NCBI GenBank assembly: GCA_028867335.1
Contig: JAGWGN010000002.1
Location: 9,829-73,828 of the forward strand
DNA length: 64,000 bases
Source: Candidatus Micrarchaeota archaeon
GTDB taxonomy: Archaea > Micrarchaeota > Micrarchaeia > Micrarchaeales > CABMGC01
Direction: 5' to 3'
Shown here piece by piece: positions 60,718 to 64,000 of the stretch. The translations under genes were made by a program, and so were the position numbers. The stretch's first letter is position 1. The number at the start of each line of letters is the position of its first letter. The notes below the pieces were generated by a model. That model was given only the letters and a program-made list of their open reading frames with translations. It searched no databases and had not been told where the DNA came from.

Positions 60718-61626
60718 CTATCCAAGAGTGGCAAGTATTCCGTCCACAATCCCCTTAACCCCGACTCCTCCTGTGGCGCGAACAGCAATCCTGTGGCTGA
60801 GCACCGGCTTTGCAAGGAACTTTATGTCGTCCCTTGTGACCTCGGTCCTTCCCTCGATTAGCGCCTTTGCCTTTCCGCACATCATCAGCGCAATGTCGGC
60901 CCTCGGGCTTGCGCCCATCACAACGTGGATGTCGGTTCGCGTGGCATTGACTATCCCGGTGATGTAGTTTGCTACGTCATCTGGCATCTTGATTAGCTTT
61001 GCCTGCTGCTGGTACTCGATTATGTCCTGCGTGCTGATTATCTTGCTCACTATGCTCTTCTCCTCCCGTTCCTTGATTCGAAGCATCTCCTTCTCCTCCT
61101 CCTCGCTCGGGTAGTCGACATCGATCTTCATTATGAACCTGTCCGCAAGCACCTTTGGCAGCGGCTCGGTCCCCTCTATTCGCAGCGGGTTCTGGGTTGC
61201 AAAGGCTGTGAATGGCCTCGGAAGCTGCATGTCAACCCCTCCCGCGGTTACCTGCCGCTCCTCAAGTGTCTCAAGAAGCGCGCTCATCGTCTTTGGAGGG
61301 GACCTGTTGAGCTCGTCGATAAGCAGGATGTTTGTGAATATCGGTCCCTTCTTGAAGGCGGGCGAGTTGTTGTCGTCAAGGTAGGCGTAGCCGACTATGT
61401 CCTTGGGCTCTAGGTCCGGGGTCCCCTGGATCCTCTTGAAGTCCGCCTGTATGGTTGATGCAAGCGCCTTTGTCATGGTCGTCTTTGCGACTCCCGGCAC
61501 TCCCTCAAGCAGAGCGTGCCCGTTTGCAACGATTGCGATAAAGAGCAGCTCGATCGTGTCGGTCTTTCCGGATATGTGCTTTTTCATCTCGGCAAGCGTC
61601 CTTGAATAGGCCTCTTTTGCGTCCAA
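60718..61626 (-). CDS. moxR: MoxR-family AAA+ ATPase
   Basis: 302 aa. LLEGVPGVAKTTMTKALA (Walker A), LLIDELNRSPPKTMSALLE (Walker B region) and the typical MoxR length. Confidence 0.85.
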   Translation of the reverse strand: MDAKEAYSRTLAEMKKHISGKTDTIELLFIAIVANGHALLEGVPGVAKTTMTKALASTIQADFKRIQGTPDLEPKDIVGYAYLDDNNSPAFKKGPIFTNILLIDELNRSPPKTMSALLETLEERQVTAGGVDMQLPRPFTAFATQNPLRIEGTEPLPKVLADRFIMKIDVDYPSEEEEKEMLRIKEREEKSIVSKIISTQDIIEYQQQAKLIKMPDDVANYITGIVNATRTDIHVVMGASPRADIALMMCGKAKALIEGRTEVTRDDIKFLAKPVLSHRIAVRATGGVGVKGIVDGILATLG

Positions 61627-61698: not shown

Positions 61699-62034
61699 AT
61701 GATAGGAAAAGATCACATTTCAGGCAATCCAGTAACGGTAGCGGAGTCACTTGACATACTAGAGGAGCGAAAGAAGGCTGGGGAGCTGGGATACGAGCAG
61801 CAGATAGCATACGACCACGCAAAGAAGTTCGCCTCCATGGATCTGGACAAGGCAAAGAAGTTCGCAGCCGACCTTGAGGACGTGGGGATAAGCAAGAAGG
61901 CGATAATCAAGGTCATCGATGTCATGCCGGCCAACGAGGTCCAGCTAAAGAACGTACTGCTAATTGAGAAAAAGACGTTCGAGGCCGATGTCATTAAGAA
62001 GGTACTTGAGGTCGTGGCCAAGTACAAGAAGTAA
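61699..62034 (+). CDS. rpoF: DNA-directed RNA polymerase subunit Rpo4 (RpoF)
   Basis: 111 aa. ...PVTVAESLDILEERKKAGELGYEQQIAYDHAKKF... is the typical Rpo4/F helical pattern. It is followed by DUF655, as in many archaea. Confidence 0.75.
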   Translation: MIGKDHISGNPVTVAESLDILEERKKAGELGYEQQIAYDHAKKFASMDLDKAKKFAADLEDVGISKKAIIKVIDVMPANEVQLKNVLLIEKKTFEADVIKKVLEVVAKYKK

Positions 62035-62061: not shown

Positions 62062-62637
62062 ATGGAATTCGAGAGAAAAGAGGAATTGGAGGAACACGCT
62101 GTTGTTCTAGACTATCTCCCTACTGGCAAGTCCGGCGCCGCAAAGTCGGAGCCGACAGCGATACTTCTTGGCGAGAATAAGTTCACGCTCCTTGAGGCGG
62201 TCCCAAAGCTTGGGGCAATCCTGAAGGTGGGAGAAAGAGTATACATAGGAAAGGCGGAGCGGGACAAGATTGCACTGATAAAACTCAGGCTAAACTACAG
62301 CGAGCTGACCGAGGGCGCGAGAAACGAGCTGCCGAAGGCGGTCTCGCAGATCGTCAAGGGCAACGAGCCAAAGTTCGTAGACGTCTTCAACAGGGCAGGC
62401 CCGATCAACATAAGGGAGCACTCACTCGAGCTGCTTCCCGGTGTCGGAAAAAAGCACCTTCAGGGAATAATAAAGGCGAGGGAGGAGAAGCCGTTTGAGA
62501 GCTTCGCAGACATCTCGGCAAGGGTATCGCTACTTCAGGATCCTGTCAAACTTCTAACAGACAGGATAATCGTAGAGCTAAAGGGAGAGAGCAGGTTCTA
62601 TCTGCTCACAAGGCCTTACGGAAAGCCGCACTTTTAA
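62062..62637 (+). CDS. DUF655-family protein (OB fold + helix-hairpin-helix)
   Basis: 191 aa. HAVVLDYLPTGKS...FTLLEAVPK...LELLPGVGKKHLQGIIKAREEKPFESFADI. Confidence 0.75.
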   Translation: MEFERKEELEEHAVVLDYLPTGKSGAAKSEPTAILLGENKFTLLEAVPKLGAILKVGERVYIGKAERDKIALIKLRLNYSELTEGARNELPKAVSQIVKGNEPKFVDVFNRAGPINIREHSLELLPGVGKKHLQGIIKAREEKPFESFADISARVSLLQDPVKLLTDRIIVELKGESRFYLLTRPYGKPHF

Positions 62638-62704: not shown

Positions 62705-62944
62705 ATGCATGAGATAGTCATAAGTCAACATGCTCGAGAACGAATGGCAAGATATAAGGTCACTGAAGAACTAGTGAAAATAACTCTAGAAAGCCCAGAG
62801 ATCACACTTGAAGGCCACAGCGGCAGGAATATCTATCAACGTAGGCTTAATGGGCATCTGTTGCGGGTAATTACCGAGGATTCCAAAGGAATAAAAATTG
62901 TTATAACGATATACAAAGCGAAAAGGGAAAGATATGAGATATAA
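62705..62944 (+). CDS. DUF4258-like small protein (putative toxin)
   Basis: 79 aa. MHEIVISQHARERMARYKVTEELVKITLESPE... has the H..R..R pattern of DUF4258. AT-rich. Confidence 0.55.
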   Translation: MHEIVISQHARERMARYKVTEELVKITLESPEITLEGHSGRNIYQRRLNGHLLRVITEDSKGIKIVITIYKAKRERYEI

Positions 62945-63137
62945 GTACGATCCCAAGACCGACATTCTGCTAATGATCATAAAAAACGGCATGCCTGATT
63001 TTGGAAAGCGAAGCGGAAATATAATAACACACTACAATAAACGTGGCATTCCGATAGAAATTGAGATACTTGACGCAAGCAAGACAATAATGAAGACGCT
63101 ACTCAAAGGGCGAAAATTAGTTTCCAAAGAGAGATAG
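62934..63137 (+). CDS. DUF2283-like small protein (putative antitoxin)
   Basis: 67 aa. MRYKYDPKTDILLMIIKNG...GIPIEIEILDASK. Overlaps the upstream gene by 11 nt. Confidence 0.55.
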   Translation: MRYKYDPKTDILLMIIKNGMPDFGKRSGNIITHYNKRGIPIEIEILDASKTIMKTLLKGRKLVSKER

Positions 63138-63140
63138 GAA

Positions 63141-63434
63141 TTACTTCTTTGGCTTCTCAAGGTGTCTTTGAGGGACGATTATCTTTCTGACCGTAGACTT
63201 TGAGACAGGGATCCTGACGATGTATGCGGTTCCTCTTTTCTCTATGATCTTGCCGATCTTTCCCCTGTACCTTGGGTGAGGGATGTCTGGGAAGCTTCCC
63301 TTAGGGACAATTGCAACCATGTCCCCTACCTTGAAGTTCTTGATCAGCGTGGTGAGTCCAAGCTTGCCCGGCTGGTGATGCCTTGCCAGGTGCCTTGTCC
63401 TTCCCATGAATAATCCGTGCGATCTTGGTGCCAT
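63141..63434 (-). CDS. rpl21e: 50S ribosomal protein L21e
   Basis: 97 aa. HGLFMGRTRHLARHHQPGKLGLTTLIKNFKVGDMVAIV...HPRYRGKIGKIIEKRGTAYIVRI. Confidence 0.9.
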   Translation of the reverse strand: MAPRSHGLFMGRTRHLARHHQPGKLGLTTLIKNFKVGDMVAIVPKGSFPDIPHPRYRGKIGKIIEKRGTAYIVRIPVSKSTVRKIIVPQRHLEKPKK

Positions 63435-63515
63435 ATGCTCACGTTGTATAATTACAATACTTTATAAACCTCAAATATATATAAATAGCTATCCTGAGTA
63501 TATAAGCGTGATTAA

Positions 63516-63845
63516 ATGGCAAAAAGTGGCAAGCAGATCCCTCGTCCGGTCTTCAGGGTTGAGAACATAGTAGCAAGCTCGGATCTTGGTATAGACCTCG
63601 ACCTCTACGGGATAGCACGGGCTTCCACAGACATCGACTACGAGCCTGAGCAGTTCCCTGGCGCAATCTGCAAGATAAAGGAGCCAAAGACTGCACTTCT
63701 GCTGTTCAAGAACGGAAAGATCATCTGCACGGGAGCAAAGACAGAGGCGGACATAAGGAAGGCGATAGACCAGATAATCAAGATTGTAAAGGGCCACACG
63801 ATAACATACAAGGAGGAGAAGCCGCCGAAGCTGCCAAAGAAGTGA
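63516..63845 (+). CDS. tbp: single-repeat TATA-box-binding protein homolog (half-size TBP)
   Basis: 109 aa. RVENIVASSDLGIDLDLYGIA....DYEPEQFPGAICKIKEPKTALLLFKNGKIICTGAKTEADIRKAIDQIIKIV matches one TBP repeat end to end. A Lys/Pro-rich tail and a TGA stop follow. No second repeat is encoded downstream. Confidence 0.75.
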   Translation: MAKSGKQIPRPVFRVENIVASSDLGIDLDLYGIARASTDIDYEPEQFPGAICKIKEPKTALLLFKNGKIICTGAKTEADIRKAIDQIIKIVKGHTITYKEEKPPKLPKK

Positions 63846-64000
63846 TCACTTTTTTCTCAGTCTGCTCGTGCTGATTTTGTAAATAACATATATCGCAACC
63901 GCAAACACCGCGACTGCGCTTATCACAATGCTCACGCTGTTTGAGGCAAGCCCATAGTAACCAAAGAGCATCAGAACCACGTCCCATATAAGCGCCCCGG
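63846..64000 (-). CDS. C-terminal end of a membrane protein (partial; N terminus beyond the right edge)
   Basis: My own translation in a frame different from track ORF 63778..63987: ...GALIWDVVLMLFGYYGLASNSVSIVISAVAVFAVAIYVIYKISTSRLRKK*. It is a hydrophobic helix with a basic tail. I checked 51 in-frame triplets for stops. Confidence 0.4.
   Translation of the reverse strand, partial: GALIWDVVLMLFGYYGLASNSVSIVISAVAVFAVAIYVIYKISTSRLRKK

Follow-up and report, generated by a model that had tools for sequence, protein, structure and literature searches.

All promoters of Archaea and eukaryotes make use of TBP. To our knowledge, the functional TBPs studied so far are all two-repeat chains, and a homodimeric ancestor of the family is purely hypothetical. 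Canonical archaeal TBP (P. woesei 1PCZ/1AIS, M. jannaschii 2Z8U, S. acidocaldarius 1MP9; PRK00394) has two repeats in about 180 aa, whereas the half-size TBP gene described here (type A) encodes one repeat in 109 aa, and its saddle would lie between chains. Type A has the canonical TBP fold, and its DNA-contact residues and EPEQ stirrup are also those of canonical TBP; the tail is acidic in P. woesei TBP, whereas in type A it is basic and predicted to be disordered. With two-repeat TBPs of the same class, type A shares the genomic slot by L21e, RpoF and DUF655. The gene lies in a window of 64,000 nucleotides (the whole stretch of DNA that was analysed) from a Micrarchaeota genome.

Monopartite TBP-domain proteins have been described as TbpA in Halobacteria and as a group in Thermococcales (Brindefalk et al., 2013; PMC3597702). 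As in type A, a single TBP domain makes up the whole archaeal protein (PMC3597702). Those proteins are always accompanied by at least one full-length TBP (PMC3597702), whereas type A occurs without any; the Thermococcales proteins have diverged far from TBP and TbpA is dispensable (PMC3597702), whereas type A is close to TBP; and type A, unlike them, sits at the TBP locus. A comparative study of DPANN counts TBP as conserved (PMC8407392). In a full-text literature search, no account turned up of a one-repeat protein that takes the place of TBP, or of one that is the sole TBP in Micrarchaeota.

The TBP of M. jannaschii is said to have been described as "ambidextrous" by Ouhammouch, Hausner and Geiduschek in 2009, with both stirrups reportedly recruiting TFB in basal transcription. 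It shows that a TBP which is symmetric in effect can be functional in Archaea; however, it is a single two-repeat chain, whereas a type A homodimer (A2) would be exactly symmetric, and A·B, with a second half-size protein termed B, would reconstruct the symmetry from two genes. Split protein genes with their halves at distant loci are known from Nanoarchaeum equitans, a symbiont with a tiny genome. A and B are comparable in that what is usually one protein is divided between genes far apart in the genome, but unlike the N. equitans splits, the A/B pattern is better explained by loss of a repeat and later gain of a paralog than by simple fission.

Results

Gene product and predicted fold

63516–63845, + strand: half-size TBP gene (type A), ATG to TGA, 109 aa (open reading frame list)
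Type A, aa 18–23 (S1), 30–36 (H1), 40–42 (S2) and 50–54 (S3): predicted elements (AlphaFold2 model)
Type A, aa 59–63 (S4), 68–74 (S5), 77–91 (H2) and 95–109 (disordered Lys/Pro tail): predicted elements (AlphaFold2 model)

The initial annotation had reported a 109-aa open reading frame with one TBP repeat at 63516–63845, and this was exact (open reading frame list; one PF00352 repeat counted). The single PF00352 stretch covered aa 13–92 and scored 98.8 bits against a Pfam cut-off of 22.9. With all ten NCBIfam full-length TBP models, only one of the two model halves aligned to type A, which scored about 94 bits against cut-offs of 181 to 347 bits (94 against 278 for one model). P. woesei TBP was matched at E = 4e-42 (phmmer, PDB), with 69 bits in repeat 1 and 75 bits in repeat 2. 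Identity was 42% to each P. woesei repeat and at most 60% to the repeats of two-repeat Micrarchaeia TBPs. The motifs quoted in the initial annotation are present, except that EYEPEQFPG was misread and the sequence is DYEPEQFPG.

The AlphaFold2 model of type A built on a 119-sequence alignment (pLDDT 87.6) had the element order S1-H1-S2-S3-S4-S5-H2, which is that of a TBP repeat. A shallow alignment of 34 sequences gave a poor model (pLDDT 56, S1 unformed), which was kept out of the fold search; S1 being unformed in this monomer model would fit a need for a partner, without being proof of it. Foldseek with the type A model returned 44 TBP chains at E ≤ 7e-6, most with an rmsd of 0.8–1.3 Å over about 85 residues, and TM-scores of about 0.75 (query) and about 0.45 (target), half of the target being covered.

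Residues N17, V19, F47, F64, T72 and Y42-E43-P44-E45-Q46 were invariant in 34 type A orthologues and aligned with identical residues in P. woesei TBP. From solved TBP-DNA-TFB complexes, we take the Asn/Val of S1 and the Thr of S5 to contact DNA, the two Phe to intercalate, and the Y-E-P-E-Q/L stirrup to bind TFB. The Lys/Pro tail had been given correctly as KEEKPPKLPKK-TGA, but not rightly as a defining feature: its length and sequence differ within the genus, it is absent from other genera, and it is predicted to be disordered. It was consequently discarded as a meaningful character. By sequence and predicted fold, type A is a bona fide single-repeat TBP that departs from the two-repeat architecture of the family.

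Locus, neighbours and promoter region

61699–62034, + strand: RNA polymerase subunit gene Rpo4/RpoF, synteny anchor (Pfam PF03874)
62062–62637, + strand: DUF655 gene, synteny anchor (Pfam PF04919, 194.7 bits)
63141–63434, − strand: L21e gene, divergent neighbour, synteny anchor (Pfam PF01157)
63435–63515, unstranded: divergent L21e/TBP intergenic region, 81 bp (sequence reading)
63461–63468: TATA-like box TTTATAAA, 27–34 nt upstream of the L21e ATG
63475–63487: TATA-like box ATATATATAAATA, about 29–41 nt upstream of the TBP ATG
63846–64000, − strand: 3' end of a convergent VTT/DedA-family membrane-protein gene (open reading frame list, Pfam VTT_dom)

The converging membrane-protein gene that had been noticed downstream proved to be a VTT_dom gene; its frame of 215 aa runs past the window end, and the domain was matched on the full open reading frame. 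Its stop codon (63846–63848) directly follows the TBP stop (63843–63845), so there is no space for a second repeat after type A. A VTT/DedA-type neighbour also lies downstream of type A in other genera of the family.

In most of the families sampled from the class, half-size and two-repeat TBP genes alike had an L21e homologue within the few kb fetched around them. DUF655 lay close to TBP in 74 of the loci that were fetched, and the proximity of RpoF to TBP was conserved across the class. In six families of the class (f4, f9, f12, f13, f15 and f19) a two-repeat TBP lies close to L21e/RpoF/DUF655, and in about 23 other sampled families a half-size gene lies near this cluster. Type A is thus the positional orthologue of the canonical two-repeat TBP.

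TATA-like hexamers in the genome peaked 26–40 nt upstream of predicted ATGs (491 long open reading frames), a spacing that both boxes fit, and TTTATAAA and ATATATATAAATA may, on this sequence evidence, act as the promoter elements of L21e and TBP, respectively. From the 491 upstream regions, a crude EM motif search recovered no more than a weak motif, AAA..TTTATAW, which suggests an A-rich stretch upstream of the TATA-like hexamers. Binding and bending of TATA DNA and recruitment of TFB and RNA polymerase are putative functions of type A, proposed from the TATA-like boxes throughout the genome and from its one TFB gene.

The hexamer peak at 26–40 nt also implies that most mRNAs are leaderless or have a short leader, and that promoters are of the classical BRE/TATA type. 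Between DUF655 and L21e lies a pair of genes with overlapping ends (62705–63137, + strand), DUF4258 (79 aa) and DUF2283 (67 aa), which has the look of a toxin-antitoxin-type cassette inside the conserved RpoF-DUF655-L21e-TBP neighbourhood. A 302-aa open reading frame at 60718–61626 (− strand) has a GVPGVAKT Walker-A-like motif and, as read from its sequence, resembles a MoxR-type AAA+ ATPase.

Conservation of gene A across assemblies

Proteins of 94–125 aa, 72–96% identical and with the same end point, were recovered from NCBI, JGI, ENA and Logan assemblies, and the type A end point recurred in more than 30 independent assemblies. In species-representative genomes, 351 stretches encoded type A relatives; the best 80 of these 351 were almost all from Micrarchaeota, Micrarchaeales or Micrarchaeaceae MAGs. 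Within the genus, pN of type A was 0.03–0.05 and pS 0.5–0.7, and dN/dS was at most 0.06 against congeners.

TBP genes of the genome and its relatives

When all six frames of the genome that holds the window (0.96 Mb in 62 contigs, 83% complete; type A on contig C22 of G000) were searched with PF00352 at E ≤ 1, only two matches came up, namely type A and a paralog termed B; at this threshold and completeness no two-repeat TBP was found. The whole-genome check that the initial annotation had proposed thus returned no full-length TBP and, on contig C60, a second half-TBP:

Contig C60, 5995–6321 (locus L002, 1486–1818), − strand: paralog B, one-repeat TBP, 110 aa (PF00352)

The two proteins are 51% identical. 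A single TFB gene was found in the same genome, on contig C11.

Two congeners (G182 and G186, 92–93% complete) have type A and B without a two-repeat TBP. Such relatives make up for what is missing from the window's own genome. Among closed genomes of the order, two (G106 and G118) have one half-size gene and three (G090, G046 and G181) have two half-size genes at distant sites, all five without a two-repeat TBP. In a 71-genome sample of the order, a two-repeat TBP occurred only in G078 (L052, G078:C77). Its repeats are 40% identical to each other and, in the repeat-level tree, fell with long branches in a starred clade with P. woesei and Thermoplasmatota repeats; it stands on a 3.7-kb contig that lacks L21e and DUF655 neighbours. 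It is probably a binning contaminant because of the short contig, the distant relationship and the missing usual neighbours, and was set aside as a counter-example.

Gene B lies beside a GT4 glycosyltransferase gene, often with a thermosome gene nearby, and this locus is kept in both families of the order. Orthologues of B (≥ 56% identity) occurred only in the order of the window. At least nine genera of the window's family are without B, consistently across the genomes sampled and with closed genomes included; the family has seen at least two losses of B, with no rate burst in type A. In the repeat tree, B formed a starred clade with a long stem (0.55, SH-aLRT 99) followed by tight conservation, and B is under strong purifying selection.

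Elsewhere in the class, families f5, f7, f18, f23, f24 and f29 have two or three half-size TBP genes, with three in G030 of f7 (contig C1 at 448260, 893905 and 1045410). The extra copies of G030 and of G075 (f23) are lineage-specific duplicates and are not B-like; from these copies, half-TBP paralogs arose repeatedly in the class.

N-like and C-like character

Ten canonical archaeal TBPs supplied the N and C repeats for discriminator HMMs, which gave the right sign for 20 of 20 repeats when each was left out in turn. Type A was N-like (mean +7.8 bits) and B was C-like (mean −5.9 bits, 21 of 21 B negative), a signal of few bits from only two independent lineages. With the NCBIfam TBP models, the C half matched B in 9 of 10 and the N half matched type A in 6 of 10. 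The 51% identity between A and B is similar to that between N and C repeats of ordinary archaeal TBPs (41–52%). The repeat-level tree (87 columns, 157 rows) did not separate descent of type A from the N or from the C repeat, and in it the N and C repeats of each lineage tended to group together. An N-like A, a C-like B and their 51% identity suggest, at the level of sequence, an A·B heterodimer that would mimic normal TBP.

History of the half-size state

In a tree of the neighbour genes DUF655, RpoF and L21e (397 columns, 74 loci), the half-size or full-size character needed two changes, one origin and one reversal. One branch (SH-aLRT 85, not starred) set the half-size rows plus one two-repeat reversal apart from the two-repeat families. 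This reversal, G041, sits within f6, a clade with 100% support. Its TBP (L084, G041:C30) has repeats 84% identical to each other and 79–84% identical to the half-size proteins of sister genomes; a run of N follows L084, so its C-terminus is uncertain. An independent f6 case (P0002) has 91% identity between its repeats and 90–97% to half-size proteins. The clustering of L084 and P0002 with half-size TBPs points to a recent tandem re-duplication. Altogether, P0002, P0004, P0005, P0011 and L084 are two-repeat TBPs whose N and C repeats are 80–91% identical. L084 and P0002, with repeats 84–91% identical to each other and 79–97% identical to half-size proteins of sister genomes, show that one repeat type can fill both halves of the saddle.

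The non-Micrarchaeia archaeal TBPs compared, other DPANN included, were all two-repeat. Since the half-size state is nested among two-repeat lineages and archaeal TBPs outside are two-repeat, it is a secondary reduction and not a relic. One repeat would have been lost once, in the ancestor of a large clade of Micrarchaeia; B would have been gained at the base of the window's order and later lost in several genera.

Discussion

Type A is probably the principal TBP subunit of this organism, acting as a dimer. The intact gene, its predicted fold, its conservation under purifying selection, its synteny, the lack of a two-repeat TBP and the phyletic pattern are observations, whereas dimerisation, DNA binding, partner choice and expression are inferred. 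Two chains would come together at the central S1 strands and the H2 helices and so rebuild the ten-stranded saddle, each chain contributing one pair of DNA-kinking Phe and one EPEQ stirrup. Because each chain keeps the residues aligned with the Asn/Val, Thr, Phe and stirrup, two chains would supply all that the saddle needs. The partner of type A would be itself (A2), the C-repeat-like B encoded on contig C60 (A·B), or both. In relatives where an A-type protein is the only TBP, A2 must function; in the genome of the window any of A2, A·B and B2 may form.

Symmetry of TBP need be no obstacle, since in archaea it is the contact of TFB with the BRE element that orients the pre-initiation complex (PMC7289017); a single TFB with the BRE element would set promoter direction. 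The initial annotation had expected a one-repeat TBP to affect promoter-orientation sensing, which need not follow, as a symmetric TBP need not disturb an orientation set by TFB-BRE (PMC7289017).

That the gene is something other than an intact half-size TBP, be it a normal TBP truncated by error, a member of another TBP-fold family or a decoy beside an unassembled full-length TBP, is extremely improbable and effectively refuted. The source is a MAG of 83% completeness, which speaks for such an artefact; against it stand the equal length in more than 30 independent assemblies, the 351 related stretches, the conserved convergent gene at the stop codon, the six-frame search without a second repeat, and the closed relatives without a two-repeat TBP. 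The concern raised in the initial annotation that an error at the 3' end hides a second repeat falls with the shared end point and the abutting gene. Its other reservation, membership of a different TBP-fold family, is countered by 42–60% identity to bona fide TBP repeats and by Foldseek, in which RNase HIII (3asm) and OGG1 (7pz1) came only at E = 0.2–0.3, against the 44 TBP matches at E ≤ 7e-6; identity with the RNase HIII N-domain or a DNA-glycosylase domain was rejected, type A being a stand-alone protein of 109 aa without a fused catalytic domain. The postulated ancestral state, also invoked there, does not agree with a half-size state nested among two-repeat lineages, with one origin and one reversal. 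Direct survival of a primordial homodimeric TBP is disfavoured and very improbable, even though the architecture is that postulated for the ancestor, monopartite origins have been discussed (PMC3597702) and the repeat tree has no universal N/C split. Half-size lineages lie on one side of a single branch of the neighbour tree (bar one reversal) and two changes suffice; the compared TBPs from outside Micrarchaeia, other DPANN among them, are all two-repeat; and type A is N-repeat-like, which would make it a descendant of one half of a duplicated gene.

Two further readings concern the partner. An obligate split TBP, in which the N-like A works only as a 1:1 heterodimer with B and A2 is not the working form here, is rather doubtful. 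It agrees with the signs of the N/C HMMs (A +7.8 and B −5.9 bits, 20 of 20 left-out repeats correct, 21 of 21 B negative), with the halves chosen by the NCBIfam models (9/10 for B with the C half, 6/10 for A with the N half), with an A-B identity in the range of N against C, with the strong purifying selection on B and with its own conserved locus in both families of the order. However, at least nine genera of the family, closed genomes included, carry A alone, so an A-type protein suffices; the stirrup and the residues for DNA contact are the same in A and B; the N/C signal comes to a few bits from two independent lineages only; and B looks like a later addition and not a second fission product, because it is confined to the order and the half-size state is much older. 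TBP paralogs with different promoter sets occur in haloarchaea and are the model for the other reading, in which A2 and B2 would be separate homodimeric TBPs for different promoter sets. This alternative-factor arrangement is unlikely, more so than the obligate split. The long stem of B after duplication (0.55, SH-aLRT 99) with tight conservation thereafter, the dispensability of B and the lineage-specific extra half-size copies in other families of the class (three genes in G030) fit it, but only one TFB gene was found as partner, the crude motif search resolved no promoter classes, and nothing blocks mixed dimers. A principal type A subunit acting as a dimer, as A2, A·B or both, is the preferred reading.

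A joint account is held tentatively, at somewhat less than even chance: Micrarchaeales would start all transcription with a separate-chain TBP, in which an ancestral TBP collapsed to a homodimer, B, a duplicate of the gene in this order, re-evolved C-like asymmetry without fusion to give an A·B heterodimer, and f6 re-fused a pair of near-identical repeats in a single chain.

Half-size TBP genes are often labelled "hypothetical protein", and because they score below the NCBIfam TBP cut-offs, annotation pipelines could treat TBP as missing. The one-repeat gene in the TBP slot resembles the postulated ancestor, yet it is derived and not primordial. With about 23 sampled families that have a one-repeat gene in this slot without a two-repeat copy, the clade would offer natural material for questions on TBP: whether a perfectly symmetric saddle binds TATA DNA, how TFB/BRE alone sets direction, and what is gained from asymmetry, as in B or by fusion. 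If the joint account of a separate-chain TBP is true, the homodimer, heterodimer and fused pseudo-dimer stages would coexist in living relatives.
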